In this document: in pieces, positions 576 through 37,739 of the stretch
How positions within the stretch are numbered: position 1 is the first letter of the stretch
Layout: each line of letters begins with the position of its first letter
Source of the DNA: Escherichia phage vB_EcoM_TH18
Direction: 5' to 3' (one strand)
Sequence record: ON075799
DNA length: 64,000 nucleotides
Translations under genes and position numbers: made by a program
Notes under the pieces: model-generated
The model's input: the letters and a program-made list of their open reading frames with translations, nothing else
What the model was told of the DNA's origin: nothing
Databases searched by the model: none

Positions 576-1570
576 TCCTTGTATTCAAGGTTGGACGCAA
601 CGCCAACCCCCGCACCACTACGTGCTGCTGCATGTCACCATGCAGAGTAGACTATATCACCACCCACACATAATGGGTGCTTCGCTTTTCGAACGCCATT
701 AGCTTGCGATCTACTCCCTTGCGGGATAGTCGTTGAACTACATTACCATTCATAGTTGTTTGAGATATAGATGTAAGTTTTTCTATCTTTTATTCTTCTA
801 ACAAGATTAAAACTAACACCCCATTTTTTAGATATCTTATTAATGCTTAGGATACCGTCTCTCAGATCTTCACATATCCCTATAACTTTGGATTCACTAA
901 TTCTGTTGGAAGAAGGAACCATCCTGAAATTAAACTCTTTAGAAATGTCTGGGTAGACTCTCCCAGCTTTGATACTACTAACCACAGTCTGCCCAATACC
1001 AAACATCTCACTGATATCCTTTACTCTAGCACCCTGCTCAAGTAATCTGCATATCTCAAGGGCAGTGTTATCATCAAGAGGCCTGTAACTGTTTACATAA
1101 GACTTCTTAAGCCCTATTTCATGTGCGTGATGTGTGCTTTCCTTTGCAGTTGTCCACTCAAGATTCCACGCTGCGTTATTAAGTTTGTTTCCATCTAAAT
1201 GGTTCACTTGAGTTTTTGTATCAGGGCTATCATTCTCGACAAAAGCAAAAGCAATAACCCTATGGACAAGAACTTGAAACTTTTTACCATCCTCACACAA
1301 CGTTAACATTGCATAGCCAGTTTTCTTATGGACATTAGGATGTAAAAATTTGTGGGAATACAAACTATAAATTCTTCCATCATACGTCGCACAATAATGG
1401 GAATACCCTAAAAATCCTAAATTTTTCATCTCAAACATTCTCCCTACTACAGTTTCGGAAAAGTAATTATAGCTGCTGATTGCCCTTATACAAAGGGTTT
1501 CCCAGCAATTAACGAAGTTATTCGACATGCATTACTGCATGAAGCCACTATTCTTTTAATGGTTGCGGAA
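576..1570 (-). mobile_element. putative group I intron carrying an HNH homing endonuclease ORF (boundaries approximate)
   Basis: Separates two coding segments of one ATPase gene; R-like (revcomp of gatagtcgtt ~725) and S-like (revcomp of agactatatc ~650) elements in correct order at the 3' end. Confidence 0.5.
743..1528 (-). CDS. HNH homing endonuclease (intron-encoded)
   Basis: 261 aa ORF with HNH motif HRVIAFAFVEN...VNHLDGNKLNN; sits inside the intervening sequence; start codon uncertain. Confidence 0.7.
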   Translation of the reverse strand: MSNNFVNCWETLCIRAISSYNYFSETVVGRMFEMKNLGFLGYSHYCATYDGRIYSLYSHKFLHPNVHKKTGYAMLTLCEDGKKFQVLVHRVIAFAFVENDSPDTKTQVNHLDGNKLNNAAWNLEWTTAKESTHHAHEIGLKKSYVNSYRPLDDNTALEICRLLEQGARVKDISEMFGIGQTVVSSIKAGRVYPDISKEFNFRMVPSSNRISESKVIGICEDLRDGILSINKISKKWGVSFNLVRRIKDRKTYIYISNNYEW

Positions 1571-1902
1571 ATGAAGGAAAATGAAAGCGGTTTAGGCTTT
1601 CTTTTCTCATCCTTGCCATCCCAATACTTTTCAATTAATTCTTGCTCTGAGTCACCCCAGATAAATTCTCCGTCACGTCTTATAAACCATCTAATCACCC
1701 CATCTCGTTCAGGTATAGGATATCCCTCATCGTCTAAATACCAAGAAATCAACTCCTTAATCTTATGATCTGGATCAGGGTTACAAGAGATAACCATCCT
1801 GCTCGGATATTTAGAGTTTGAACGTAGACGAGATATCAGATAATCTATCTGTGACCATGTGAATTGTGTTCCCTCATCAAAGCCGATGAAGGTATACTGC
1901 AA
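1486..1902 (-). CDS. terminase large subunit-like protein, central exon (Walker B region); ORF ends likely run into introns
   Basis: Translation FIGFDEGTQF (hhhhDE Walker B-like) ...IWGDSEQELIEKYWDG; no plausible own start; flanked by intron-like sequence. Confidence 0.5.
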   Translation of the reverse strand: MQYTFIGFDEGTQFTWSQIDYLISRLRSNSKYPSRMVISCNPDPDHKIKELISWYLDDEGYPIPERDGVIRWFIRRDGEFIWGDSEQELIEKYWDGKDEKRKPKPLSFSFISATIKRIVASCSNACRITSLIAGKPFV

Positions 1903-1904
1903 CT

Positions 1905-2160
1905 TATTGTCCCCTCAGTTCGCTACACTGAGGCGGTGTGCCAAGACACCCGCCACATGTTTCCATGTGGAACAGACTATATCTTCCATCCTTGGCGTGC
2001 CGTTTGGATCACCAATCGCTTGTGATTCTACTCTCCTACACTCATCGGAGATAGTCGTTACACCCAGATTTTATATTTCCATATTCTGTGGCACGGTATT
2101 TTCCCATAGGGAGTTCCACCGTTATAGGCACGAAGGGCAAGCTATTCACCCTGATGATCT
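1905..2160 (-). mobile_element. putative small group I intron, no ORF (boundaries approximate)
   Basis: ~250 nt non-coding insert between exons; same R-like (gatagtcgtt ~2052) and S-like (agactatatc ~1975) motifs as the other three intervening sequences. Confidence 0.45.
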
Positions 2161-3512
2161 AATTTGTTATTCTCATACTCCATGTGTCTCCACAACACCT
2201 TTGCCCCAGATGGGAAAATTGCTTCCAGAGCTTTCTCCCTGAACTTCGGCTTCCATTCCTTATCGAGTTGCAAATAAATACTTTTTGCTGTATCAAAAAG
2301 CCCACCTGCACCTGTCAATTGAGGTGTTGTCCTACGAAACATTATACATGCTGTCTGCGGGTCATCGACATAAGCAAGCGGCATCAATTGTAGGAGATAT
2401 GATTTTCCACTATTCCCAGTGACAACCACACAATCTTCTAGTCTGGTAACAAAGAAACCTGTTTGTGTTACAAAGCAGTATTTAAACCCATCCGTAGGTA
2501 TAAACTCTTTAAACTCAGCTTTTCTGTCTTTATTAGCCAGTGACCTTAATCCTTTTCCTCTAGCCATAATATTAACAGTATAACTGTCCTTTCCACTTCT
2601 TGTATCATGGTTTATGGTGGTATTATAACCAAGAGAAGATCCTACAAACTGAACAAAATCAGCGTTCATCTTATGGACAGTAAAATATCTACCTGTAAAG
2701 CTGTTATGTGTTTTACCGCCATATGGCTTACAAAAAGAACCATCCCAATGAAAAATCTCATCAAGTATTATCTCCAGTTGTTCATTTGAACACTGATAGT
2801 ATTTCTCTGTAAATTTTTTATCAGGATATTTAGGCCATACAATAACCTCGTACTGTTCCCCAGTGGTATATCTTTCACTGGGTTTTGATCCTCTATCTTC
2901 ATATCTTAATCCAAACTTTTTACAAAGTTCGATTAAGCGGTCATATTTACGCTTTTTAGCAAAGCGCATCTGTGTATAATTATCTTTCCCTTCTTTAACA
3001 ACTCTCCCATCAGCCATGACAGCAACCTGAAGCCGTAATTCCCCTTCTGTCATGTCTATCCCAGGACCATCATAGTTAAATGTAGTTATGAACTTACCTG
3101 TCCAACCTTTTTTAACAGAGTTGTTATGTCTTTCTGCCACTTCAGAAAAAGAAAGTGTTCTTGGCTGTGATTTATAGTCTGGTTTATAAATCACAGTATG
3201 TTCGTCAGATAGCTCTTGACAAATGCCATTACCTTCTATTCTTGTAAGTTTTTCGCAAGGGAGTTTAACAAACTCTAAAGGGGGGATAAATTTAGCCTCC
3301 CCAGTGGCTTTGTCATATTGCAGAATGTCCTGCCCTGACCATTCTGATATCTTAATCCAGCCAGATGGTGTCAACACCTCGTGGTCTTTAGACAAACACC
3401 CGGCGGCCCCACCAATTATTAGAATTTGGGCTTTACTCTCCAAAATCATTTTTTGCTTAGGACTGGCAGGTCCAAATACTTTACTCAAAAGACCTCCATA
3501 TTTTCTATTCAT
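2142..3512 (-). CDS. terminase large subunit-like protein, 5' exon, with in-frame intein
   Basis: N-terminus ...ILIIGGAAG then intein then SGKSYLLQLM: extein junction reconstitutes a GGAAGSGKS P-loop (Walker A). Confidence 0.6.
   Translation of the reverse strand: MNRKYGGLLSKVFGPASPKQKMILESKAQILIIGGAAGCLSKDHEVLTPSGWIKISEWSGQDILQYDKATGEAKFIPPLEFVKLPCEKLTRIEGNGICQELSDEHTVIYKPDYKSQPRTLSFSEVAERHNNSVKKGWTGKFITTFNYDGPGIDMTEGELRLQVAVMADGRVVKEGKDNYTQMRFAKKRKYDRLIELCKKFGLRYEDRGSKPSERYTTGEQYEVIVWPKYPDKKFTEKYYQCSNEQLEIILDEIFHWDGSFCKPYGGKTHNSFTGRYFTVHKMNADFVQFVGSSLGYNTTINHDTRSGKDSYTVNIMARGKGLRSLANKDRKAEFKEFIPTDGFKYCFVTQTGFFVTRLEDCVVVTGNSGKSYLLQLMPLAYVDDPQTACIMFRRTTPQLTGAGGLFDTAKSIYLQLDKEWKPKFREKALEAIFPSGAKVLWRHMEYENNKLDHQGE
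2412..3398 (-). mobile_element. putative intein with LAGLIDADG-type endonuclease domain (residues ~39-367)
   Basis: Begins CLSKDHEVLTP (block A-like), contains LQVAVMADGR and LEIILDEIFHWDGSF, ends ...VVVTGN before Ser+1; interrupts the P-loop. Confidence 0.6.
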
Positions 3513-3583
3513 ACCATAGAGGGTAGTTTACCACGAATAACGATAAAAATAAAGCCCTTATCATTAAATAAGGGCATTGTCAA

Positions 3584-3877
3584 CTATTTATCTGAAGTAA
3601 ATATTGTCTTTACATACTGTTGTAGCGTTCTTAATTTCATACGATCTTCAGCAGCCTTAATGTTGTTTTTCTTGATCACCTCTATAGCATCCGCATTACT
3701 AAGACCACCTGGCAATTTTTCAGGTTCTTTCGGTGGTATCATAGCTTCAGCGGGTGGTCTTGCTAAGATATCGCTTATTATGATCTCTTTTGCAACAGGA
3801 ACAACTCTCTCAGGCGGTGAAGTGCACCCTGTTAACATCAATAATAGAAAAGGAACCATGATGACACACTTTTTCAT
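3584..3877 (-). CDS. o-spanin-like outer-membrane lipoprotein
   Basis: Signal peptide with lipobox LTGC, proline-rich mature part; overlaps the upstream i-spanin-like gene by 4 nt. Confidence 0.55.
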   Translation of the reverse strand: MKKCVIMVPFLLLMLTGCTSPPERVVPVAKEIIISDILARPPAEAMIPPKEPEKLPGGLSNADAIEVIKKNNIKAAEDRMKLRTLQQYVKTIFTSDK

Positions 3878-4275
3878 TTCACCCCCAGACTATCGTTATA
3901 AATATCAACAAACTGGTTATCTAGGCAAACCTGTTTTCCTGCTTGTGTTTTGCTATAACTTTTAACCTTTTTATCAAGGTCTTCTTTCAGTTGGTTATTA
4001 ATTTCTCTCTCTTTCACCAACATGGTTGACAACTCATCGATCTTATCCTGCTGTTGTTTTTTAAAAGCGTTGTTGTGATCTCTAACTTGCTGGTTAATCC
4101 TCTCCCATTTAAGGTCAGTATCGCTGACACCTGCGTTGTAGGATGATGTTAACTGGTCATTATACCAATGCTTTATCTCCACAACACCCCAAACGAGCAT
4201 CACACAACACAAAACGACACCTATCTGTTTTATGTTCTTAGAAAAGAAAGTTAACAGCGTTTTAAACCATATCAT
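3874..4275 (-). CDS. i-spanin-like protein (N-terminal TM helix plus coiled coil)
   Basis: 133 aa; hydrophobic N-terminus (IGVVLCCVMLVWGVV) followed by charged heptad-rich region. Confidence 0.55.
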   Translation of the reverse strand: MIWFKTLLTFFSKNIKQIGVVLCCVMLVWGVVEIKHWYNDQLTSSYNAGVSDTDLKWERINQQVRDHNNAFKKQQQDKIDELSTMLVKEREINNQLKEDLDKKVKSYSKTQAGKQVCLDNQFVDIYNDSLGVK

Positions 4276-5609
4276 GATATATCACCATCACACTCAATAA
4301 TATTTTCAATCTTCAACGTTGTTTTTCTGTTTTCAGAAATACACAGACTATTAAAATTGCTAATATCGTACTGGATCTTAGATGTATCGCTTACAGAAAC
4401 CTCTAACAGAACTGCTCCAGGCTGATATATTGTAAACCCATAACTATCTCCCTCCCCGTTCTCACACAGAATTTTGTACTCTCCTCTTGCCTCCGCTTCA
4501 TCAACATAAAGTCTGAGAGTTGGAAAATTATTTGCTATATCTTCTTTGTGAAGCCCAACATGATGTTTATCTTTTGTTGGCATCATGAGATAGAAAACTT
4601 CCGCAGGACAAACTCCATATAGTTTTGTAAAATATTTCCTACCTGTTGCTTTTCTTAATCTTTGGAAAATACTGAACATATTAACTTTAGATACATCATT
4701 AAACGGCAACGGTTGCACAGGGGTAACATTTTTGTCTACCTGCTGGCAACAAGATTCTAATCTGTCTAGGAACTCAACCAAAGAATCAAGTGAAAACTGT
4801 TTTGTCTCATCAAAGATATCTGACAGTTTCATTCCGTACATCCCGCTAAGATGTGACTTTGCCGATTCCCAACTTTCTATCTGAAGGCTGGCAATAGCCA
4901 TAGCCAGTTTCATTGTCTCTTTTTTCGAAATTGTATAGCCACGAGATTTGTATTTTTCAGATCTCAAAAGTGATATAATCGGGTATTCAGTCTTATGATT
5001 TACAACTAAGACTCTTTGAGCAATATGTTTTAAGAAATTGCTATCAAATTCCCACACACCATCCTTGAAGTTAAAAGCGCCCATGTTGATTGTAAAATCA
5101 ACTTTGCTAAAGATATCTTCTGTTGTTTTGAACACATCCACAGCAACACACTGTAATACAGGATCCTGCCCAAAGTACAGCGTTACGCTCTTATCTGTCA
5201 CACCAACTCTGGTAAGATTTGGGAGATCATCTTCTTCAAGATGAAAATTTTCACATCTGGACAAAGGGTCTGTGAAACATAAATGCGTATCCTGCCCATT
5301 ATCAAGGTTATAAAAATACCTAAAAGTTCTTTTTTGATTTTCCCATCCGTTTGTCTGTGCGGTTAAATCATACTTTCCACTTAAAAGATTTTTATCCATC
5401 ATGTACGCAATGAATATCTCAAGATTTTCCCAAGATGGGAAATACAAATCAAGATCGTTGACTTTACTATTAGAGAACAAAGAGGTTATTGCCCCGCCAG
5501 CTATCTTAACATCCAGCTTCGACAATAAATCATAAACACCTTTTGGTATAAAAGAGCACAAAATGTCGTACTCTCTTTGAAAATCTTCTTTTTTGAAAAC
5601 ATGCAACAT
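4272..5609 (-). CDS. Pol-beta-superfamily nucleotidyltransferase-fold protein, function unknown
   Basis: Start refined to MLHVFKK (ATG at 5609); motif IAGGAITSLFSNSKVNDLDLYF fits the hG[GS]-x9-13-DhD nucleotidyltransferase signature; long C-terminal domain unassigned. Confidence 0.55.
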   Translation of the reverse strand: MLHVFKKEDFQREYDILCSFIPKGVYDLLSKLDVKIAGGAITSLFSNSKVNDLDLYFPSWENLEIFIAYMMDKNLLSGKYDLTAQTNGWENQKRTFRYFYNLDNGQDTHLCFTDPLSRCENFHLEEDDLPNLTRVGVTDKSVTLYFGQDPVLQCVAVDVFKTTEDIFSKVDFTINMGAFNFKDGVWEFDSNFLKHIAQRVLVVNHKTEYPIISLLRSEKYKSRGYTISKKETMKLAMAIASLQIESWESAKSHLSGMYGMKLSDIFDETKQFSLDSLVEFLDRLESCCQQVDKNVTPVQPLPFNDVSKVNMFSIFQRLRKATGRKYFTKLYGVCPAEVFYLMMPTKDKHHVGLHKEDIANNFPTLRLYVDEAEARGEYKILCENGEGDSYGFTIYQPGAVLLEVSVSDTSKIQYDISNFNSLCISENRKTTLKIENIIECDGDIS

Positions 5610-5660
5610 CTTAGCTATCCTTAAGTACAAAACAAGATGCGTAGAGACTAGCACATAAAG

Positions 5661-5682
5661 AAAAACCCCGCAAGAGGCGGGG
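5661..5682 (-). terminator. rho-independent terminator downstream of the tRNA cluster
   Basis: Hairpin ccccgc-aagag-gcgggg with A-run on plus strand (U-run on minus-strand transcript). Confidence 0.55.
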
Positions 5683-5814
5683 TTAGGCATAGGAGAGGAG
5701 ATTGATTGGATTATTATTATAGTTATTTGAGAAAAGTGGCGAAGGAACCTTTACATGTCGAGAGTGTCTTACCGTTTACTCAGCCACGACCCTCCTTAGT
5801 GTCCACTTTAATTC

Positions 5815-5893
5815 TGGTTGCGAGTATTGGAATCGAACCTGCAATCTTCAGGGTATGAACCTAACATGGTAAATCCATTTCCACCAATCTGCA
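5815..5893 (-). tRNA. degenerate tRNA-like element (anticodon-loop CAU; weak acceptor and T stems)
   Basis: Canonical T-loop GGTTCGATTCC, D stem and anticodon arm TTAGG-TTCATAC-CCTGA present, but T stem and acceptor have several mismatches. Confidence 0.3.
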
Positions 5894-5899
5894 ATAATT

Positions 5900-5975
5900 T
5901 GGTGTGACGGACAGGATTCGAACCTGTGACCACCTAGTCTTCAGCAAGGCACTCTACCAACTGAGTTACCGTCAC
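5900..5975 (-). tRNA. tRNA-Phe (anticodon GAA)
   Basis: Manual cloverleaf: acceptor GTGACGG/CCGTCAC, D arm ACTC/GAGT, anticodon loop CTGAAGA, T loop TTCGAAT, encoded CCA. Confidence 0.8.
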
Positions 5976-5980
5976 ATAAT

Positions 5981-6057
5981 TGGTGGGCGATGAGGGACTC
6001 GAACCCCCAAAATTCAGGTTCTAAGCCTGACATGTATACCAATTCCATCAATCGCCC
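5981..6057 (-). tRNA. tRNA with anticodon UAG (Leu-reading) but short variable arm
   Basis: Acceptor GGGCGAT/ATCGCCC, anticodon arm TCAGG-CTTAGAA-CCTGA, T arm GGGGG-TTCGAGT-CCCTC, CCA encoded; D stem has one mismatch. Confidence 0.55.
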
Positions 6058-6071
6058 ATCTATATTAACAG

Positions 6072-6263
6072 TTATGGTTTTCCACGATACACAGAAATAG
6101 TTTTCCCATTAGCATTGATAACATAAGCGGTCTGATCCTCAGACAAAAACACTTTTTGATCAATGCCGGAAATAGCTATAGACTTTTGATGAGCACAATA
6201 CCCAACAATTTTCCCACAAAAAATTTGTTCATCATTTGGAGAGACGACTTTAACTGTTAACAT
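6072..6263 (-). CDS. small hypothetical protein (63 aa) inside the tRNA cluster
   Basis: Start refined to MLTVKVV with RBS agagga 6 nt upstream; the longer ORF-track start would overlap tRNA-Pro. Confidence 0.45.
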   Translation of the reverse strand: MLTVKVVSPNDEQIFCGKIVGYCAHQKSIAISGIDQKVFLSEDQTAYVINANGKTISVYRGKP

Positions 6264-6305
6264 GGTATCCTCTGTACATTTCTGCTTTGATATGTTTATG
6301 TTTGT

Positions 6306-6383
6306 TGGTCTGTCCGGTTGGATTTGAACCAACGACCTGGTCATCCCAAGTGACCCGCGCTACCCAAGCTGCGCTACGGACAG
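6306..6383 (-). tRNA. tRNA-Pro (anticodon UGG)
   Basis: Perfect cloverleaf: acceptor CTGTCCG/CGGACAG, D arm GCGC/GCGC, anticodon arm GGTCA-CTTGGGA-TGACC, T loop TTCAAAT, CCA encoded. Confidence 0.85.
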
Positions 6384-6467
6384 AGAAATGTAGATTTTAA
6401 TTGTCCCAGAATCTACTAACTGGTATCGCTGGCTAGGTGATATCTGTGACTTGATTAAGTCAAGAAT

Positions 6468-6559
6468 TGGCGGTTCCTGAAGGATTCGAACCTTCGGTGG
6501 GGAGATTCATTCCCAACGGCTTAACAGGCCGTCACCATCGACCACTCGGTCAAAGAACC
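6468..6559 (-). tRNA. type II (long variable arm) tRNA with anticodon GUU; identity uncertain
   Basis: 92 nt; acceptor GGTTCTT/AGGAACC (one G-U), anticodon arm ACGGC-CTGTTAA-GCCGT, ~20 nt variable arm, T arm GAAGG-TTCGAAT-CCTTC, CCA encoded. Confidence 0.55.
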
Positions 6560-6568
6560 TGAATATTT

Positions 6569-6645
6569 TGGTGGATCTGGTTGGGGTCGAACCAACAATC
6601 TCTCGATTAAAAGTCGAGTGACTTAAACCATTTGGCTACAAATCC
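6569..6645 (-). tRNA. tRNA-Lys (anticodon UUU), weak D arm
   Basis: Acceptor GGATTTG/CAGATCC, anticodon arm CTCGA-CTTTTAA-TCGAG, T arm GTTGG-TTCGACC-CCAAC, CCA encoded; D stem poorly paired. Confidence 0.55.
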
Positions 6646-6663
6646 GTTAAATTATCTTTAAAA

Positions 6664-6691
6664 TAGCTAATTACTCGCACATAATTAGCTA
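6664..6691 (-). terminator. hairpin plus U-run (terminator-like) within tRNA cluster
   Basis: Inverted repeat tagctaatt...aattagcta followed on the minus strand by TTTTAAAGA. Confidence 0.3.
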
Positions 6692-6878
6692 TACGCAACA
6701 ACTCTCCAAGGAGAGCACACTAATGATCGATTACGATTATATGACTAAATTTAGACCATCATAAGTGTTTGGCTTACGCCAGTAAAGAGCGGACTGCTCT
6801 GGGGTATCGGTAAGATGGTTGCAGCCATCTACCGAAAAATCACACCAAGCAACTAAACAAGCTACATTAAAGATAACT

Positions 6879-6967
6879 TGGAGGAGGCTGACAGAATCGA
6901 ACTGTCACCATATCTCTACAGCGGGACTGGGTTCAAACCAGCTTGTGCACCATGCACCCCAGCCTCC
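6879..6967 (-). tRNA. tRNA-Ser (anticodon UGA), type II
   Basis: 89 nt; acceptor GGAGGCT/AGCCTCC, anticodon arm GCTGG-TTTGAAC-CCAGT, long variable arm, T arm GACAG-TTCGATT-CTGTC, CCA encoded. Confidence 0.7.
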
Positions 6968-7038
6968 AAAGATAGCCTCTGCCGAGGATATACACCCAAC
7001 AAAGGAGGCGCTCAGGTCAGAAGAAATCTGAGCCTTAA

Positions 7039-7132
7039 TGGAGGAAGATGCCAGACTTGAACTGGCACACCCATTTCTGGGTTACTATCTCCTTAGCAGG
7101 GAGATCCCTTACCAAATTAGGGTTAATCTTCC
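7039..7132 (-). tRNA. tRNA-Ser (anticodon GCU), type II
   Basis: 94 nt; acceptor GGAAGAT/ATCTTCC, 3-bp D stem, anticodon arm TCTCC-CTGCTAA-GGAGA, T arm GCCAG-TTCAAGT-CTGGC, CCA encoded. Confidence 0.75.
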
Positions 7133-7153
7133 AATACCTTAGTAATTAAAAAC

Positions 7154-7243
7154 TGGTGGAGAAGGAGAGAATCGAACTCTCAAGCCGTTTTACCAGTCAG
7201 CACATTTCCAATGTGCTTTCGTCGCCAATCGATTTGCTTCTCC
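7154..7243 (-). tRNA. tRNA-Ser (anticodon GGA), type II
   Basis: 90 nt; acceptor GGAGAAG/CTTCTCC, anticodon arm GCACA-TTGGAAA-TGTGC, long variable arm, T arm GAGAG-TTCGATT-CTCTC, CCA encoded. Confidence 0.65.
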
Positions 7244-7252
7244 GTTTTAACT

Positions 7253-7328
7253 TGGCAGGGGATGGTTGATTCGAACAACCGATCACGGGGTCAAAGCCCG
7301 TTGCATTAGGCCACTATGCTAATCCCCT
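7253..7328 (-). tRNA. tRNA-Gln (anticodon UUG)
   Basis: Perfect cloverleaf: acceptor AGGGGAT/ATCCCCT, D arm GCAT/ATGC, anticodon arm ACGGG-CTTTGAC-CCCGT, T loop TTCGAAT, CCA encoded. Confidence 0.85.
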
Positions 7329-7333
7329 TTTGC

Positions 7334-7410
7334 ACGAGAGTGAGGAATAGAACCTCTTAGTCACTGGTTTTGGAGGCCAGCCTTCACCCAGTGAAGTTAC
7401 GCTACTCTCA
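7334..7410 (-). tRNA. non-canonical tRNA-like element
   Basis: Good acceptor (TGAGAGT/ACTCTCG) and T-loop-like GGTTCTATTCC, but D and anticodon regions do not fold into standard arms; no encoded CCA. Confidence 0.3.
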
Positions 7411-7417
7411 TTAAAAA

Positions 7418-7975
7418 CTATTTTCGAAAAGGACTTATGAAAAATGCCAACATCACTCTCTCTCTTGAAAAAGCTCTGTCTTCAGGAACCACACTCTTCA
7501 GTTTCCAACCGACATAAATTCGCCAGTAAAATTGTTTTCCAAACAATCTAAAAGACGGGACAAACGCGAATACACCCCACGCATTGTCATTCCACATCAA
7601 CAAATAGCCTTGTTGGTTATCCTCCACATCAGAGCTTACATGGAGGTTTCCTTTCCACTTTGTCACAGATGTGATTTCACGTCCAAGTACGTGATAGGAG
7701 AAATTGTAGGCTTTATTTCTCCACAACCAAGCAACTCGTTGTAGGTAAACACCAAAACTTCCTATTTTACGGACTTCTTCCCATCTCTCTATGTGTCCTC
7801 TATCACCGTCTATAGGATTATCATATGTCTCCATCCACCTGAAAATATAAGGCAGATGCCCTGTCTTCTCATTATAGAACGGAACAACAAAAGGAGCCAG
7901 AATAACACAGAGAACCGACATAACTGGGTCAAGAGGTGCTAACAGGATCCACGATAAATATTTTAAGTATCTCAT
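7418..7975 (-). CDS. hypothetical protein (185 aa, hydrophobic N-terminus)
   Basis: ORF from six-frame track; start overlaps stop of upstream gene (ATGA). Confidence 0.5.
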   Translation of the reverse strand: MRYLKYLSWILLAPLDPVMSVLCVILAPFVVPFYNEKTGHLPYIFRWMETYDNPIDGDRGHIERWEEVRKIGSFGVYLQRVAWLWRNKAYNFSYHVLGREITSVTKWKGNLHVSSDVEDNQQGYLLMWNDNAWGVFAFVPSFRLFGKQFYWRIYVGWKLKSVVPEDRAFSRERVMLAFFISPFRK

Positions 7976-8202
7976 GCAGGATCAAGCCTAGATATAATGT
8001 ACTGGTTTAAATCTGAATATGGGAAGATACTTTCAAAGATAACCTGTTTAAATCTGAAGCCGCACAAACCGAAAAGTACCTTCTGACACTCACCAAAAGA
8101 GCAATCTTTACCAACTTTTATCACAACCGTATCGGCAATCTGCACACTTTCTATCTCTTTAGATTCATGATGCCGTACTATGATTACTTTAGAAACCATC
8201 AT
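7972..8202 (-). CDS. hypothetical protein (76 aa)
   Basis: ORF from six-frame track; translationally coupled to downstream gene. Confidence 0.45.
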   Translation of the reverse strand: MMVSKVIIVRHHESKEIESVQIADTVVIKVGKDCSFGECQKVLFGLCGFRFKQVIFESIFPYSDLNQYIISRLDPA

Positions 8203-8327
8203 ACTCGTCCATATTAAAGCCTTCTACTAAAGATAGTAGATGTCTAGGGTTGGACCGCAAACGCAACCCCATGGAATTTGTTACGGTCTTCAGTTGACCC
8301 AAGCGGATTTCATTGACATCTTTTAAC

Positions 8328-8402
8328 TGGAGCATCCAGAGGGTATCGAACCCTCGACTTCAGCTTGGAAGGCTGTAGTTTTCCCAATTAAACTATGGAT
8401 GC
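8328..8402 (-). tRNA. tRNA-Gly (anticodon UCC)
   Basis: Acceptor GCATCCA/TGGATGC, D arm GTTT/AAAC, anticodon arm (A)CAGC-CTTCCAA-GCTG, T arm GAGGG-TTCGATA-CCCTC, CCA encoded. Confidence 0.75.
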
Positions 8403-8407
8403 ATATT

Positions 8408-8483
8408 TGGTGGGAGTGGTAGGCTCTGCCCCTACGTCCTCTCGATTATCGGTCGAGCGATCTACTAACTGATCTACACTCCC
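8408..8483 (-). tRNA. tRNA-like cloverleaf with Ile-type anticodon GAU but non-canonical D and T loops and C at position 33
   Basis: All four stems perfectly paired, CCA encoded, but D loop AGTTAGTA lacks GG, T loop is GGCAGAG (no TTC), anticodon loop is CCGATAA. Confidence 0.5.
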
Positions 8484-8546
8484 AAACTGTACTGGCCCAA
8501 CAACCACGATTGGAGGGTATCGTCACACATCAAAGCCAGTACAGTT
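8484..8546. other. long perfect hairpin (13-bp stem, ~37-nt loop) between two tRNA genes
   Basis: aaactgtactggc (8484-8496) and gccagtacagttt (8534-8546) are exact reverse complements. Confidence 0.6.
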
Positions 8547-8551
8547 TTAGT

Positions 8552-8641
8552 TGGTGTGCCGTGATAGAGTCGAACTACCCGAGTCCCTTTCGAGACAGGA
8601 GATTTACAGTCTCCCCCGCTACCCCTACGGTCTAACGACAC
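8552..8641 (-). tRNA. tRNA-Tyr (anticodon GUA), type II
   Basis: 90 nt; acceptor GTGTCGT/ACGGCAC (one G-U), anticodon arm GGAGA-CTGTAAA-TCTCC, long variable arm, T loop TTCGACT, CCA encoded. Confidence 0.7.
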
Positions 8642-8642
8642 A

Positions 8643-8990
8643 TTAACCTTGTTTGAATTGAACAATATCCGTCGAGAACGGTTTAGCTGCCTTAATAGGT
8701 GCTTTTTCTGAGTTATCTTTTTCGAGTAACTCTTCGTTTTCCTCATCAAAGTAATCAGAAAGCATCTGCTCACCTTTCTCAATAACATAACGAGCTATAT
8801 TTTCTCTGATATTGTCTTTTGTATTCACATTCTTCATCAAATCCCTAAGAACCTGATGAGCTTCAGGAATCATTGCAATCAGATTCGTTTTTAAATCTAG
8901 GATATTTTTCTCTAACTGAATTGCATTAGATTCCTCTTTCAGAGGACGACCTTTTCCTCTTCTACGTTTTGTAAGCTGCTTAGTAGCCAT
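8643..8990 (-). CDS. hypothetical protein (116 aa, basic N-terminus)
   Basis: Start refined to MATKQLTKRRRGKG; the longer ORF-track N-terminus overlaps the tRNA cluster; sigma70-like promoter just upstream. Confidence 0.5.
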   Translation of the reverse strand: MATKQLTKRRRGKGRPLKEESNAIQLEKNILDLKTNLIAMIPEAHQVLRDLMKNVNTKDNIRENIARYVIEKGEQMLSDYFDEENEELLEKDNSEKAPIKAAKPFSTDIVQFKQG

Positions 8991-9009
8991 TTTAAAACCC
9001 CACTTAATG

Positions 9010-9039
9010 ATATTATCAAATAAAAACATATCTGTCAAG
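9010..9039 (-). promoter_or_regulatory. sigma70-like promoter (TTGACA, 18-nt spacer, TAATAT)
   Basis: Minus strand reads TTGACA...TAATAT shortly upstream of the ATG at 8990. Confidence 0.5.
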
Positions 9040-9075
9040 TGGTATTTTAACATATTTACCAAGAAATTGAAAGTT

Positions 9076-9152
9076 TGGAGCACGGTGTCGGACTTGAACC
9101 GACATATATCTGTTTTGCAGACAGATCCGTAACCAAATTCCAGCAACCGTGC
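9076..9152 (-). tRNA. tRNA-Cys (anticodon GCA)
   Basis: Acceptor GCACGGT/ACCGTGC, anticodon arm TCTGT-CTGCAAA-ACAGA, T arm GTCGG-TTCAAGT-CCGAC, CCA encoded; D stem weak. Confidence 0.65.
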
Positions 9153-9228
9153 AATAAGTACCCCAGGTAGAGAACCTATAGAGTGGGTCTTACGAGCCGC
9201 GCTGACGATTCTCAAGTTGGGGTTAATC

Positions 9229-9305
9229 TGGTCGAGGAGACAGGATTCGAACCTGTGACCTACGGCTTAGAAGGCCGCTGCTCTATCCAACTGAGCTACA
9301 CCCCG
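9229..9305 (-). tRNA. tRNA-Arg (anticodon UCU)
   Basis: D arm GCTC-AGTTGGATA-GAGC, anticodon arm GCGGC-CTTCTAA-GCCGT, T arm ACAGG-TTCGAAT-CCTGT, CCA encoded; acceptor has one mismatch. Confidence 0.7.
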
Positions 9306-9505
9306 AAAATAAGAATGCTTTATAGTGTATGGTTACTCAACCTCACTCCAACTTCCACAGTTGGTGCTCTACGAGCATGACTACGTTTGAAATCAACGTT
9401 GCGCACCGATAGCTTTCTCACGCATTGTATGCCTCATTCCCAACAAATGCTGATCAGACATTTATATCGAATAATATAAGCTAATACACTATAAAACAAA
9501 CTTGT

Positions 9506-9602
9506 GGCTGGGTGATGGAATCGAACCACCTATGTATTCAACGGCTTCCCCGTCTATTTTCAGGATTATAAATCCTCGCCCTTGCCAAAGGGCTTACCCA
9601 GC
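9506..9602 (-). tRNA. over-long (97 nt) tRNA-like element, anticodon arm ambiguous
   Basis: Perfect acceptor (GCTGGGT/ACCCAGC), D arm GCCC-TTTGGCAA-GGGC, T arm GGTGG-TTCGATT-CCATC; central region has only a 4-bp stem with loop TTTATAA and ~30 extra nt; no encoded CCA. Confidence 0.35.
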
Positions 9603-9604
9603 AT

Positions 9605-9679
9605 TGGTGCTCGCAGCAGGTTTCGAACCTGCAACCCCCTGCTTACAAGGCAGGTGCTCTACCGTTGAGCTATACGAGC
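9605..9679 (-). tRNA. tRNA-Thr (anticodon UGU)
   Basis: Acceptor GCTCGTA/TGCGAGC, D arm GCTC/GAGC, anticodon arm CCTGC-CTTGTAA-GCAGG, T arm GCAGG-TTCGAAA-CCTGC, CCA encoded. Confidence 0.85.
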
Positions 9680-10044
9680 AATAAGACATTGCTTCCGATT
9701 AACAGCCTTGAGGCTTTACAGACCATATCTTGTGAGCCATAACCTGTGCCAAGGATTTCAGATGATAAACGAAATTTTATCTTTCAAGAGTCAACTTTCA
9801 AGTTTCATCTTTTACATTTAACCATTGACCTTTATTGTATGAACTTTTACTTAGTGGAAACAACAAGGCATCTTCGTGTGCCTCGCTGCATCTATGTCCT
9901 GTATTATCCTCATACATATACGATACATGGTGGGGGATATTTAACCTCCAACCCCCAGGAGGCAAGATGATGTAAACTTCGTTAATCAAAAGCAATGTTT
10001 TAAATTTCAAAACAAAGGAACGATAATGATATTATCAGAGCCTT

Positions 10045-10692
10045 TTAGAGAGAGTGCTCAATCTCAATTTCTGTCTTAGCGTTTGACTCAGACAACGCAA
10101 AATCAACGTTAGACAAGAAATCTTCAATCTCTTCTTCAAGAGAACGAATCTTAGAAGCCAGTTCAAGAGGATCCACAACCGATGGTGTGTTCATCATTCG
10201 AATAGGAGCTTCCACAGTCTTAATCTGCTCTGCATCTGGCGCTTTATCACGTTGGATATATGGCGCTCTTGCATTTTCAAGTTTATCTTCCAGAGATTTT
10301 TCTTCTTTTGCCAGAAGAAGCTGTGCAGAAGCACGCTGTGCACAAAGTTTGTTTAACAACTCTTGTTTAAAGCAAATCGTCCGTTTGCGTTCGATTGCCT
10401 CAGCAACTGTCATAGACACATTACCAATTTTGACAATTGTCTCAGCATTAGACTTAACAATTTTTGCTTTCAGTTCATCACGCACTGCCAAGAGGTCTTG
10501 CAGACTTTGATAGTCGTTGATCGCAGATTTCTTAAAATCATCAACAGAGCCGATATAACCCGGAATCTTACAATTATTCTCAGTTCCTTTTGCAATCTTA
10601 ATACAATCAAGATTGTAGATACGCTTATTGATCTTATCTTCAATTTTAGAGATAGAAGCAAGTGCACGAGTTACGGAAATCTTAGTAGACAT
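10045..10692 (-). CDS. hypothetical protein (215 aa, charged coiled-coil-like)
   Basis: ORF from six-frame track; charged, heptad-like composition. Confidence 0.55.
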   Translation of the reverse strand: MSTKISVTRALASISKIEDKINKRIYNLDCIKIAKGTENNCKIPGYIGSVDDFKKSAINDYQSLQDLLAVRDELKAKIVKSNAETIVKIGNVSMTVAEAIERKRTICFKQELLNKLCAQRASAQLLLAKEEKSLEDKLENARAPYIQRDKAPDAEQIKTVEAPIRMMNTPSVVDPLELASKIRSLEEEIEDFLSNVDFALSESNAKTEIEIEHSL

Positions 10693-10765
10693 GCGATCTC
10701 TCCTATGTAAATCAGCTTTGATAAAGTAACTATCCAGAAAAACAAAAACTATGTCAAGAAAAATT

Positions 10766-10957
10766 TTAATCTTTTACAGCATCTTTTATAGAATCACAAA
10801 GATCTTGAACAACATCAGATGTCGGTGACAAAATCATCTCGTCGGCTGCTGCTATAGCATCTGATGCTAAATCAACAAACGGAGTTGTTACCGCAGAAGT
10901 CACTTCAACAGCCGTTATTGTTACTTCGCTTGCAATCTTAAGCAAAGATCCTATCAT
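10766..10957 (-). CDS. hypothetical small acidic protein (63 aa)
   Basis: ORF from six-frame track in an otherwise gene-free gap. Confidence 0.4.
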   Translation of the reverse strand: MIGSLLKIASEVTITAVEVTSAVTTPFVDLASDAIAAADEMILSPTSDVVQDLCDSIKDAVKD

Positions 10958-11033
10958 AATCTCAACCCTCCTGAATATCCGTGATTCCCTTTATTTAACG
11001 ACGCTGGCTCACGGTGGCACTCTCGTCAATAAA

Positions 11034-11357
11034 CTATTTTTTAGTTTTCTTACCGTTTTCTACAGAAATGCTTGTTTTCTGTTTCGCTTCTCGTTCGCGC
11101 TTTGTTTTCCCAGTGCGAATACGATATGAAGCAGAAATAACTTCACCACCAATGACACGAGACACAGATTCGTAATACATTTCAGTATTACCGTCTTCAT
11201 CTTTGCGTTTTTTCAGAACTGCTACAGTTTGCGTTTTACCACCAAGGCGCACATCGTGCGGTGCAGAATGTGTCTGCGTGGATTTTGATCCAAACTGAAA
11301 AGGTTGCTTTATCGCCTCGATAGCTGACACCTTTTTAGCAGACTGTTTCTTAGCCAT
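11034..11357 (-). CDS. hypothetical basic protein (107 aa)
   Basis: Start refined to MAKKQSAKK with strong RBS ggagga upstream; lysine/arginine-rich. Confidence 0.55.
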   Translation of the reverse strand: MAKKQSAKKVSAIEAIKQPFQFGSKSTQTHSAPHDVRLGGKTQTVAVLKKRKDEDGNTEMYYESVSRVIGGEVISASYRIRTGKTKREREAKQKTSISVENGKKTKK

Positions 11358-11408
11358 TAAGTTTTCTCCTCCGAAAACAATAAACATAGTTTATTTCGTG
11401 TGCCACAT

Positions 11409-11485
11409 TTGGTGGCCCCTGCTGGACTTGAACCAGCGACCAAGCGATTATGAGTCACCTGCTCTATCCAACTGAGCTAAGGGGC
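11409..11485 (-). tRNA. tRNA-Met (anticodon CAU; initiator/elongator/Ile2 not distinguished)
   Basis: Acceptor GGCCCCT/AGGGGCC, D arm GCTC-AGTTGGATA-GAGC, anticodon loop CTCATAA, T arm GCTGG-TTCAAGT-CCAGC, CCA encoded. Confidence 0.8.
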
Positions 11486-11818
11486 CGAATCTCTTAATAT
11501 GAGATGATATTATCCTGTATGATCTACATTGTCAAGAGATATTTTAAAATTTTATACATCCCAGTTTTCTTCTTGATAACAACCTTCCCCGAATCCAACT
11601 TCTTTTTCAAAATCAATACCTTTTTTCATACATTCCTCACATTAACAGATATTGTTTTCAAACTCAAAACGTAAAATACGAACTCTGTCAATACACTGCT
11701 GTAATCTACAAAGCAACAACTCAACTTGTTTATGCGTCTCTTCAGTATACGTTTTGGTCATCTTGCTTTTCTCCGTGATCTTTTCATTGCAGCTTCTGCA
11801 CGTCTTTGTTTACGATTT

Positions 11819-12067
11819 TTAGATGGTTGTTCTAAGGATCCTGATAACGTACTTTGTTGTGCTAATCCCTTCGATGGGGTAGAAATAATATAATCCCCCT
11901 TCTTCACCGAACGATGCAATATATTTCCAGGATTCAATTCCAAAACCAGTTGTAGAAAAAGCGACATCATCCGCTTCTTCAAGCGCATCATCATGTGTTT
12001 TATGGAAAGACTCATGTTCTACGTACTCCCCGTTATCAGACTTAAGAACCATTTTTAATTTAAACAT
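11819..12067 (-). CDS. hypothetical acidic protein (82 aa)
   Basis: ORF from six-frame track with ggtga RBS-like sequence upstream; preferred over the overlapping frame 11758..12015. Confidence 0.45.
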   Translation of the reverse strand: MFKLKMVLKSDNGEYVEHESFHKTHDDALEEADDVAFSTTGFGIESWKYIASFGEEGGLYYFYPIEGISTTKYVIRILRTTI

Positions 12068-12395: not shown

Positions 12396-14111
12396 TTAAA
12401 GCTGTGATAAGGCTCTTTGGCGAATTTCTTCAAGATCCTCATCCACAAGCAGCTTACCATTAACAAAAACTGTTCTAAGCTCGTTATCATGGTCAGATAC
12501 TTGGTTAATACCAAGATTATCTACCAGCTTCAACTCGCCATCATCACCACGAATAACTTTAACAAAACCTTTCGCAGATTTCTTCCCAAGATCAGTCTTA
12601 GGCTCTTTTACGACCATTACTTGTCTGCCATCAATCACAGCACCAGTAGCTTTTACAGCCATCCCAAGAGAATCACGGGTTGTATATTGCGTTGTATAAG
12701 ACCCTACACCAAACACAATGTTACTGGAAGCAAACCCTCGTTCTTCAAGGCGCTCAAAGATCTCTTTAGCACGGGAGATTGTGATAGAGTCTCCGTAGAT
12801 TAAACCAACATGGCTATCAAGAACTTTGTAACCCAAAGAGTTTACACTACCACCAAAGATTTCCCACAAGCATTGTACAGCACCCTTAACTTCCTCTTTT
12901 GTCAGATAATTTGTAAATTCATCACCTGTCAAAGATTTCCAATCTACGAGGTTGCCTTCCGAATCTCGCATCCATGAAGTGTCTCTGGACATCTCGTATA
13001 AAGTGACATATTTGCCATTTTTAAACAGCACAGCATCCATGTCACAGCACTGCCCCGTTGCCCATTCTTCCTGAGAGCACACGCGATAACCAGCAATGAT
13101 GTGCTCTGGGATCCCACTGTCAGGTCGGAAGACCAGCTTGCCATCACGAGACATAATCTCATCTTTCAGGATTTTTGCTGCCTGTGTAATGATTGCCCAA
13201 AAATCATAGCTGTCAGCGACGTATGAAGCATAACCTGATGGGAAAATCTCTGTCACATAACGCTTTAAGAACTCAACTTCAGCACGAAAACGTGCTTCAT
13301 CAAGCGGCATATCAGGATTTTCCTGCTGGATACGCTCAACAATAAAACCAATGTTCGTTGTCGCTACGCTATGCTCAGATGCGGGAATAGACCCAGCAAC
13401 AAAGCGACCTTTCATGTTGTAATAGCGATTTGCGTAAACAATCGCTGGAATTGTATCTGTGCCCATTGAGCTAATCAGTTGCCCAAATTCGCTCTGTGCT
13501 GCGTCATGTGTTCCAGCTTCACCACGGTATGCAAAACAATGGTTCTGGAAAGGAACATGATCGTTGTTATCACATGTTTTCTTTGCCCACAGTTCTGATA
13601 GTTTACGGTATTGCCAGAAAGTCGTTGCCGTGGTAATTGTCTTCCAAGTCTCCGATGAGATCACGCTCTCAAGGAAGTTCGGCAGCCAGTAAAAATCAGG
13701 ATGCGTGTTCTGAATCGTGAACATGGGAACCTGAACAGGAACAAGAGTTCCTTCAGGCAAAGCCCTAATTTCAATTGGGAGATAACCAAGGTCATGCAAT
13801 TTCTCAAAACCCCAAGTTTCAACAGCATCCTTCCCAATGCTCAAATCACAAATCTCTTTGTAATCCTGAATCGCCTTTTCTTTCGGTAAAGCGAAGAAAT
13901 TATTATTAAACATGTCGATCAGGAACCACTTGATAAATCCCTGAAGACCTGCAAACATCACACGATGGTCATCATCTGCAAAGTGTACAAAGTGTTTCAC
14001 ATTGCGTGGGGTCATGTTGTCTTGAACAAACTGTGAACGTCTATCGTACATCGAGATGTGACTTGGTTTATAAAAATCTGCGAACAGCAATGGACTTTCT
14101 TTGTGAAGCAT
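12396..14111 (-). CDS. nadV: nicotinamide phosphoribosyltransferase (NAMPT/NadV family)
   Basis: 571 aa; overall resemblance to the NAMPT family by eye (not searched); adjacent to a PRPP synthetase gene. Confidence 0.7.
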   Translation of the reverse strand: MLHKESPLLFADFYKPSHISMYDRRSQFVQDNMTPRNVKHFVHFADDDHRVMFAGLQGFIKWFLIDMFNNNFFALPKEKAIQDYKEICDLSIGKDAVETWGFEKLHDLGYLPIEIRALPEGTLVPVQVPMFTIQNTHPDFYWLPNFLESVISSETWKTITTATTFWQYRKLSELWAKKTCDNNDHVPFQNHCFAYRGEAGTHDAAQSEFGQLISSMGTDTIPAIVYANRYYNMKGRFVAGSIPASEHSVATTNIGFIVERIQQENPDMPLDEARFRAEVEFLKRYVTEIFPSGYASYVADSYDFWAIITQAAKILKDEIMSRDGKLVFRPDSGIPEHIIAGYRVCSQEEWATGQCCDMDAVLFKNGKYVTLYEMSRDTSWMRDSEGNLVDWKSLTGDEFTNYLTKEEVKGAVQCLWEIFGGSVNSLGYKVLDSHVGLIYGDSITISRAKEIFERLEERGFASSNIVFGVGSYTTQYTTRDSLGMAVKATGAVIDGRQVMVVKEPKTDLGKKSAKGFVKVIRGDDGELKLVDNLGINQVSDHDNELRTVFVNGKLLVDEDLEEIRQRALSQL

Positions 14112-14174: not shown

Positions 14175-14984
14175 TTAAAAATTTTCTGTCCAGTCGTAGT
14201 ACGCATAGATTTCGTCAACGCCACCGTTGAGAATAAATTCTTTCCCACGAGAGAAAATCCCATGCGTGACATACAAGATAACACGTTTAGCACCAGCAGC
14301 TTTCAAGGCTTGAGCTAAGTTTGTAAACGTAAACCCACCATCGCAGATATCATCAACAATCAGGCACATCTTCCCATCGACATCACCAAACACTGTTGTG
14401 CCTGTGATTGCCCCTGTTCCCACATCACGGATTTTACCAGCTTCAACCACAGATAGTTCCAAGGCATCAGCTACCTTCTGGGTCTTCTTGCGTGCACCTG
14501 CATCTGGAGCAACCAACACAAGCGATTCGTCCGTAAGCAGATCAAAATCAAACTTCATGTTCAAGAACAATTCAGTCTGAGAACGAATTTTCACGTTATC
14601 AAGCAGTGCTGCGGATACGTCACTGTGTGGGTCATCGACGATGACTTTGTGGAAACCCAGCGAGTTAATCATTGTGGCAAAGACTTTCACCGACAGAGCT
14701 TCACCAGGGTTCATAACTCGGTCTTGTCGAGCATACGGGATGTACGGCAGGTGTAAAACCTTTTCCACACCAACATCCAAATTGCCAAGACGATTGACTG
14801 CATCAACAAGCAACGCAAGACACATCACATCTTGGGAGTGCTTAATGCGAGCGAAGATATCCACAAAACCAATCGAACCCTTAGGGATATAGTGCATATC
14901 GATCTTCACCTGCTCCTCACCACCACTGAAGGTAAAATGGTCAACTGGAACATGCAACTTGTTCAAACTCAAACGAATATTCAT
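14175..14984 (-). CDS. prs: ribose-phosphate pyrophosphokinase (PRPP synthetase)-like
   Basis: Motifs PYIPYARQDR, VAPDAGARKK and PRPP-binding LIVDDICDGGFT match the Prs family pattern. Confidence 0.7.
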   Translation of the reverse strand: MNIRLSLNKLHVPVDHFTFSGGEEQVKIDMHYIPKGSIGFVDIFARIKHSQDVMCLALLVDAVNRLGNLDVGVEKVLHLPYIPYARQDRVMNPGEALSVKVFATMINSLGFHKVIVDDPHSDVSAALLDNVKIRSQTELFLNMKFDFDLLTDESLVLVAPDAGARKKTQKVADALELSVVEAGKIRDVGTGAITGTTVFGDVDGKMCLIVDDICDGGFTFTNLAQALKAAGAKRVILYVTHGIFSRGKEFILNGGVDEIYAYYDWTENF

Positions 14985-36133: not shown

Positions 36134-36326
36134 ACACCCCTCGCTTGTGCCTGTACATTGCCAGAGGCCATACAGAACTCACTATAAAGCATTTCCATGC
36201 CCAACCCCATGCAGTTTTTGGTGCATAGACCTGTTCAAGTGTTTTACTATTCTCCATCTCTGCGGTATGCACAAACCATACCGCAATATACAATGTAACT
36301 GTAATGTAGATAAAGCTATTAATCAT
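36108..36326 (-). CDS. small membrane protein (72 aa)
   Basis: Two hydrophobic segments (FIYITVTLYIAVWFV; CFIVSSVWPLAM). Confidence 0.45.
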   Translation of the reverse strand: MINSFIYITVTLYIAVWFVHTAEMENSKTLEQVYAPKTAWGWAWKCFIVSSVWPLAMYRHKRGVYEEKTGTA

Positions 36327-37380: not shown

Positions 37381-37739
37381 TCTCGTACCTTTGTGCTTTT
37401 TCTTACATTATCCCAAAAATCAAGGATATTTTGGTATCGGATCTTGTCTTCCATATATTCAGCCTCATCACGAAGATCGCATACATGGTCTATTAAGGCA
37501 CACACTTCATTATAGTGTTCTGTATCACTTGTGATGTGCTTAATCATACAAGATCCTGCTTTCCACTTTGAAAGTGAGTATCTCAGATTATCATCTTTCT
37601 CTGTGGGGGACGCGTCAACTAATATTTTTGCCTTATTGCCTTTTATCTTTTGTACCACCCCTCTGCGCAATTCATTATTACCCCAATAGATAAATACTGT
37701 ATCGCCAACAAACAGTTTTGTTCCGCTTGCGTCTCTCAT
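37377..37739 (-). CDS. hypothetical protein (120 aa)
   Basis: ORF from six-frame track; coupled to the nucleotidyltransferase gene (overlapping stop/start). Confidence 0.5.
   Translation of the reverse strand: MRDASGTKLFVGDTVFIYWGNNELRRGVVQKIKGNKAKILVDASPTEKDDNLRYSLSKWKAGSCMIKHITSDTEHYNEVCALIDHVCDLRDEAEYMEDKIRYQNILDFWDNVRKSTKVRE

Follow-up and report, generated by a model that had tools for sequence, protein, structure and literature searches.

A divergent Gad2-family protein with a predicted nucleotidyltransferase fold encoded next to the tRNA array of Escherichia phage vB_EcoM_TH18

What does a protein with a nucleotidyltransferase-like motif do when its gene lies directly downstream of a transfer RNA (tRNA) array? 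The gene in question belongs to Escherichia phage vB_EcoM_TH18, an Avunavirus (Vequintavirinae) of E. coli, and was analyzed within a stretch of 64,000 nucleotides of sequence record ON075799, which we call the window. A preliminary description of the window had regarded the product as a second nucleotidyltransferase (NTase)-fold protein and, from its position after the array, had raised the possibility of a tRNA- or RNA-modifying enzyme. The present analysis indicates that the protein is almost certainly a divergent member of the Gad2 family (Gabija anti-defence 2, PF26128). The earlier interpretation was half right: the fold that it proposed is supported by structure prediction, whereas the tRNA-linked function probably does not apply.

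The assignment to Gad2 is based on annotation and on direct comparisons. A precomputed Pfam label, PF26128 'Gad2', is attached to an identical protein (P0001) and to all 75 homologues. Our own Pfam scan of the window protein returned no match at E values up to 1 because the PF26128 model was not in the Pfam copy scanned. BLASTP against the Gad2 coding sequence of SPbetaL7 (OQ921347; WIT28108.1) aligned 167 amino acids of the core at 37% identity (1e-30) and a second segment at the N-terminus (1e-9). Using a profile of our alignment A1, hhalign matched the same protein with a probability of 100% and an E value of 1.3e-77 over 345 columns, and the homology covers the whole catalytic core. Furthermore, a protein of Brevibacillus laterosporus (P0058), the species whose prophage homologue blocks Gabija on co-expression, was matched with an E value of 2e-32. 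Against NCBIfam and PADLOC, neither the protein nor its relatives gave a match, and a PHROGs search returned 'unknown function' families only.

Gad2 was defined by Yirmiya et al., who found that its deletion makes SPbetaL7 fully sensitive to Gabija and that the B. laterosporus prophage homologue blocks Gabija when co-expressed; SPbetaL7 Gad2 was toxic, and AlphaFold2 gave an NTase domain (bioRxiv 10.1101/2023.05.01.538930). The family was first reported with 170 homologues and is in fact much larger. A Gad2-family NTase of a P. putida phage is also toxic on overexpression. The companion Gabija structure paper makes no mention of Gad2. The window protein and the SPbetaL7 prototype have in common a homologous core, all family-invariant residues, an N-terminal NTase joined to a C-terminal domain, and a phage origin. 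In contrast to the prototype, the window protein carries an additional insertion of approximately 60 residues after motif A, and the two C-terminal domains are barely alignable. The host phyla also differ, and the tRNA-spanin-terminase setting found here contrasts with that of the SPbeta anti-Gabija locus, which adjoins a DNA ligase gene.

We then consider the fold. An AlphaFold2 model built on a 46-sequence alignment had a mean predicted local distance difference test (pLDDT) score of 85.6 and a predicted template modelling score (pTM) of 0.85; only the linker between the two domains was disordered. The predicted structure is that of a Pol-beta-type NTase, the nearest solved relatives of which are class II CCA-adding enzymes together with poly(A) polymerases (PAPs). 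The structure matches were 3h37 (12.2), 3aql (12.2), 3wfo (11.3), 4wby (11.2), 9kma (11.1), TENT5B (10.7), 1miv (10.0), and 1ou5 (8.5), each with approximately 190 residues aligned. Therefore, the structure prediction contains the NTase fold postulated in the preliminary description, with a head and neck like those of class II CCA/PAP enzymes. TENT5/FAM46 non-canonical poly(A) polymerases (PDB 6jyj) are eukaryotic, differ in the accessory domain, and lack sequence similarity to the window protein.

Searches by sequence gave little of this relationship. PDB searches, run with either the protein or the family profile as query, yielded chance matches only; ribosomal L3 and stathmin, for example, were matched in the low-complexity C-terminal part. 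One distant family member matched the PolyA_pol head domain with an E value of 0.035, under the cut-off. Alignment by hhalign to the CCA enzyme of the window itself, as a single sequence or as an 18-sequence profile, gave E values of 0.02-0.03 and a probability of approximately 2% (0.023 and 2% against the CCA profile alone), which is not significant. The register of this alignment agrees with the structural match: GGAITS...DLD falls on GGAVRD...DRD, KVD171FTINM on RRDLTINS, and YPIISLLR216 on EDPLRILR. In class II enzymes, the RRD of motif B reads the ribose 2'-OH, and the EDxxR of motif D templates C/A. The segments aligned to motifs B and D read K-V-D171 (family consensus x-F-D) and E-Y-P-I-I-S, with the arginines and the ED pair gone. 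Judged by this register, the window protein appears to have kept the metal-binding carboxylates and lost the RRD and EDxxR selection motifs. It shares the head and neck fold with class II tRNA nucleotidyltransferases and bacterial PAPs (PF01743; PDB 3h37, 3aql, 1miv); however, it lacks the RR of motif B, the ED..R of motif D, the tRNA-binding body and tail domains, and the HD domain, and its C-terminal domain is different. We infer that the window protein is not a CCA-adding enzyme because both selection motifs are gone and a variable, possibly ADP-ribosyltransferase (ART)-like domain replaces the tRNA-binding body and tail.

The motif that drew attention to the gene reads A37-G38-G39-AITSLFSNSKVN-D52-L-D54-L-Y56, which corresponds to GG-x12-DLDLY. 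A GG...DLDLY motif near the N-terminus had been described previously and is present; however, its spacing is x12 and not x13. On its own, the bare motif is weak evidence, no more than chance, and the pattern G[GS]-x9-13-D-x-[DE] occurs 11 times in the 20.9k amino acids of long open stretches in this window. The motif is lifted above chance by its invariance in homologues and by the fold prediction. G38, G39, D52, D54, Y56, and D171 were invariant in 46 diverse homologues (24-93% identity) and again in a set of 143 sequences that includes the prototype Gad2, so that the preliminary description stood up to both checks that it had named, on the fold and on the conservation of the motif residues. 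Ten residues were invariant in both sets (G38, G39, D52, D54, Y56, D171, T207, P210, K219, and Y220), at a mean column identity of 19% in the larger one. In the counterpart of motif D, P210, K219, and Y220 are invariant and R216 is nearly so. The insertion after motif A is missing from all short-form homologues in alignment A1, and its pLDDT was lower (71-89).

This pattern bears on the idea that the protein is a catalytically inactive scaffold that, like Gad1, would bind and block a defence complex and in which the NTase fold is only structural. Such a scaffold would be consistent with the loss of RRD and EDxxR, and the role of D171 as third carboxylate is itself deduced. However, the invariance of G38, G39, D52, D54, and D171 in 143 sequences at a mean column identity of 19% is what one would expect if the active site is functional, and we regard an inactive scaffold as very unlikely. 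The window protein very probably catalyzes nucleotidyl transfer.

The position after the tRNA array was examined in 80 viral loci with relatives of the gene, which were scanned for tRNAs together with 6 kb of flanking sequence at either end. In 12 of them, comprising the 10 full-length Vequintavirinae-type loci and the loci L015 and L016, the gene directly follows a tRNA array; a single tRNA is nearby in 3, and the remaining 65 have none within 6 kb. The adjacency is confined to one or two lineages. Since the array is present in only 12 of the 80 loci and a terminator separates array and gene in the window, tRNA adjacency is inherited lineage synteny and not evidence for a tRNA function. In L015 and L016 (3926-6948), the gene belongs to a shorter-form Gad2-like lineage with 34% identity to query residues 4-344, and a five-tRNA array ends approximately 240 nucleotides upstream of it. 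Rz, Rz1, TerL, and portal genes follow downstream in L016, which may represent a distant Vequintavirinae-like phage. A 142-kb metagenomic relative keeps the order of tRNAs, gene, Rz, Rz1, and TerL.

The settings in other lineages are different. In 16 GC-rich loci, the gene is flanked by an AAA_24 ATPase on one side and by a DnaN clamp, an SF2 helicase, and a sigma factor on the other, and in 10 SPbeta-like loci it adjoins an ATP-dependent DNA ligase. The GC-rich group (L049, L056-L062, L070-L076, and L080-L085; approximately 4000-12000 in each) has a conserved replication/recombination module in the order AAA_24 ATPase, 194-amino-acid protein, Gad2-like protein, DnaN clamp, 311-amino-acid protein, SF2 helicase, and sigma factor. 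In the jumbo phage locus L003, a gene of an RlaP-family NTase lies one gene downstream of the Gad2-like gene.

These data weigh on the possibility that the window protein is a nucleotidyltransferase of tRNA or RNA 3' ends, by which host or phage tRNAs would be repaired, tailed, or marked, either within the tRNA programme of the phage or against tRNA-cleaving defences. Its closest solved folds are those of tRNA CCA-adding enzymes and RNA poly(A) polymerases, a distant member weakly matches the PolyA_pol head, the array stands directly upstream in every Vequintavirinae-type locus and in L015 and L016, and toxicity on overexpression would fit an action on cellular RNA. Toprim relatives of GajA (P2 OLD and PARIS AriB) cleave tRNAs (PMC12445682). 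However, most loci carry no tRNA at all in the flanks and three carry one, a terminator stands between gene and array, and RRD, EDxxR, and the tRNA-binding body and tail are missing. Moreover, GajA is reported as DNA-cleaving, and the phage already encodes an RlaP-family NTase and a complete CCA enzyme: the gene at 39188-40432, previously called that of the canonical CCA enzyme, was found to encode a PolyA_pol head, RNA-binding domains, and an HD domain. We consider this activity unlikely, and the tRNA- or RNA-modifying role drawn from the position of the gene is not borne out by the Gad2 membership, the locus counts, the terminator, and the missing class II motifs and domains.

The features of the locus are listed in Table 1. 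The open reading frame (ORF) is present on the minus strand at the position given previously; its product has 445 amino acids plus the stop codon, and not 446. The gene is indeed the first protein gene after the tRNAs, the last of which in the direction of transcription is tRNA-Met (5815-5893). Its ATG at 5609 is preceded by an AAGGA Shine-Dalgarno-like stretch. A longer frame of 472 amino acids from 5690 was rejected; 5609 is the likelier start because the 5690 start falls within the terminator hairpin upstream. Escherichia phages 18-1-2, 19-1-2, and 24-2-1 have sequences 100% identical to the 1338-nucleotide stretch and its protein, and Av05_004 of Av-05 shows 87% nucleotide identity to the stretch; the gene is labelled 'hypothetical protein' in all four.

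Table 1. Coordinates of the Gad2-like gene, the parts of its product, and its neighbours in the window
Feature	Position	Strand	Remark
Gad2-family protein gene	4272..5609	-	ORF; 1338 nucleotides, 445 amino acids + stop codon
N-terminal nucleotidyltransferase core, residues 1 to ~270	4800..5609	-	Resembles class II CCA/PAP head + neck
Motif A, G38-G39-x12-D52-x-D54, putative metal-binding DxD	5448..5498	-	Invariant in 143 sequences
Insertion of ~60 residues (about 72-133), specific to the Vequintavirinae clade	5211..5396	-	Between motif A and the next core strands
V170-D171-FTINM, putative counterpart of class II motif B (RRDxTIN)	5082..5102	-	Placed on RRDLTIN by hhalign; D171 invariant, both arginines lost
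Y209-PIISLLRSEKY220, putative counterpart of class II motif D helix (EDPLRxLR)	4950..4985	-	ED..R lost
Low-confidence linker, residues 288-307	4689..4748	-	pLDDT <50
C-terminal domain, residues 308-445, tentatively ADP-ribosyltransferase-like (BC2332-like)	4275..4688	-	No conserved catalytic residues
Intrinsic-terminator-like hairpin	5664..5684	-	Between tRNA array and Gad2-like gene
Upstream tRNA array, 16 tRNAs	5815..11486	-	Syntenic neighbour
Rz-like i-spanin gene	3874..4275	-	ORF; 'Rz-like spanin' label in Av-05; neighbour kept in 11 loci
Rz1-like o-spanin (lipoprotein) gene	3584..3877	-	ORF; Av-05 counterpart; neighbour conservation
Terminator-like hairpin	3554..3575	-	Ends the three-gene unit ahead of TerL

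In the direction of transcription, the 16-gene tRNA array is followed by the hairpin terminator, the Gad2-like gene, Rz, Rz1, a second terminator-like hairpin, and TerL. The Gad2-like gene and Rz/Rz1 form a terminator-bounded unit directly upstream of the terminase gene. The stop codon of the Gad2-like gene and the ATG of Rz share letters (ATGA), and the order of Gad2-like gene, Rz, Rz1, and TerL is kept in 11 loci. The overlap, the terminators on both sides of the three genes, and the kept order would all fit a component of the lysis cassette that is translationally coupled to Rz/Rz1. However, the protein has no transmembrane segment, signal peptide, or muralytic fold, and homologues outside the lineage lack spanin neighbours. 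A role in lysis is extremely unlikely.

The C-terminal domain had been described as large and unassigned. We now tentatively assign residues 308-445 to an ART-like fold, with a likeness to the BC2332-like/ADP-ribosyltransferase superfamily (SCOP d.166; PDB 2aua); however, a Foldseek search of the PDB with the domain gave no significant match and did not confirm this fold. Modelled by itself or as part of the full protein, the domain was predicted with confidence (pLDDT 88). No invariant or near-invariant column was found beyond residue 272, and one column of the C-terminal alignment reached 90% or more. A conserved catalytic triad of the H-Y-E or R-S-E type was not found in the domain, in which it differs from the ADP-ribosyltransferase superfamily. 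The domain is probably not catalytic and is more likely a recognition or ligand-binding module. We speculate that this variable domain most likely selects the target.

On balance, we favour the view that the window protein acts as an anti-Gabija enzyme in its phage. Several points weigh against this view. The identity to validated Gad2 is 27-37% and limited to the core, and sequence-only likeness to class II NTases is not significant. The validated members are two, both from Firmicutes, and the clade of the window protein is not among them. When the Vequintavirinae C-terminal domain was aligned by hhalign to that of validated Gad2, the match was weak and partial (E value 1.5e-3 over 41 columns); since this domain is barely alignable, target specificity could differ from that of validated Gad2. 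The family comprises 5396 clusters at 50% identity with E values up to 1e-3 (722 with E values up to 1e-30), and uniform anti-Gabija specificity across it is unlikely because it is so large. The spanin and terminase neighbours suggest a late-looking unit, whereas an anti-defence enzyme is expected early, and no obvious sigma-70-like promoter was found between the upstream terminator and the ATG. In addition, the mechanism of Gad2 has yet to be worked out, according to a review of February 2026 (PMC12904381).

Some of these points would equally suit a Gad2-fold counter-defence or host-takeover enzyme with a non-Gabija enterobacterial target, possibly another nucleotide- or DNA-end-sensing system; the insertion of 60 residues and the C-terminal domain peculiar to the clade would then give the enzyme its specificity. 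Conservation of the C-terminal domain does not extend across the family, the insertion is particular to this clade, the family is very large, and only two members, both of Firmicutes, are validated. However, the catalytic core shows strict conservation, and it is presumably this part that makes the product; Gabija is widespread, Enterobacteria included. Nothing positive was obtained for another system, with PADLOC and NCBIfam scans empty. We regard a non-Gabija target as rather unlikely.

If the window protein is an anti-Gabija enzyme, its action may be envisioned as follows. D52, D54, and D171 would hold Mg2+, and a nucleotidyl group would be moved from a nucleoside triphosphate or deoxynucleoside triphosphate to a hydroxyl acceptor. 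Donor and acceptor specificity would be unlike that of CCA enzymes because the selection motifs and tRNA-binding domains are gone. The preferred acceptor would be the 3' end of a nucleic acid, DNA or RNA, and untemplated addition would remove or mask the signal read by Gabija; alternatively, the enzyme may make a nucleotide-derived small-molecule inhibitor or nucleotidylate GajA/GajB. Any particular acceptor is at best a tentative choice. Gabija is reported to act at RecBCD-free phage DNA ends and to block end-joining and circularisation (PMC12904381). Gad2 genes of other lineages are often found with ligase, recombination, or replication genes, a setting of DNA metabolism. The overexpression toxicity of two family members suggests a general cellular substrate rather than Gabija proteins only.

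A more speculative and quite improbable extension is that Gad2-type enzymes, including the window protein, are tRNA/RNA 3'-end nucleotidyltransferases derived from CCA-adding enzymes, and that Gabija, in line with P2 OLD and PARIS AriB of the OLD family to which it is related, has an RNA or tRNA side to what it does or to what sets it off, which would be neutralised by Gad2. The ART-like domain would then bind a ligand related to NAD or ADP-ribose, or an RNA 2'-phosphate or 3' end, as Tpt1 does. If true, this would connect the tRNA synteny of two lineages, the CCA-like fold, and the overexpression toxicity.

Other features of the window were also noted. The gene of the terminase large subunit (TerL; 743-3512, minus strand) is fragmented. 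An intein-like insertion lies within its Walker A loop in the ORF at 2142-3512, with the interruption GGAAG|CLSKDHEV...VVVTGN|SGKS, and L013 and similar relatives have an unbroken GGAAGSGKS; a further TerL piece (1486-1902) and an HNH_3 homing-endonuclease ORF (743-1528) are also present. A DUF7338 protein gene (E value 7e-65) is located inside the tRNA array at 7418-7975 (minus strand). Just upstream of the array, a NamPT-like phosphoribosyltransferase (PF04095) and a PRPP synthetase are encoded at 12396-14111 and 14175-14984 (minus strand), an NAD+ salvage pair of the kind that phages deploy against NAD-depleting defences. A 2026 Erwinia study reported that gad2 and NARP2 co-occur perfectly in phages. 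A third NTase-fold gene (36319-37380, minus strand) belongs to the RlaP family (PF10127, 'RNA repair pathway DNA polymerase beta family'), with the motif GSIAYGTNLPTSDVD, and is followed by a DUF7205 gene at 37377-37739.

The present analysis reveals no new kind of system, and the Gad2 family was already known. What is new is the likely CCA/PAP-type architecture with lost selection motifs, the possible ART-like domain, and the spread through Vequintavirinae. Few anti-defence proteins are predicted to be enzymes, and Gad2 is among them. The question of its mechanism is narrowed by a predicted CCA/PAP-type head and neck without the nucleotide-selection motifs, joined to a variable, possibly ART-like domain; from such an architecture, one would expect terminal nucleotidyl transfer in which the donor or the acceptor is new. 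Nearly all listed GenBank records describe the gene as 'hypothetical' only. For a gene that Vequintavirinae phages of Escherichia, Salmonella, Klebsiella, Cronobacter, Enterobacter, and Erwinia have kept, the present results provide a lead to its function; several of these phages are candidates for phage therapy. The window protein may serve as a member of the Gad2 family that is tractable in E. coli.

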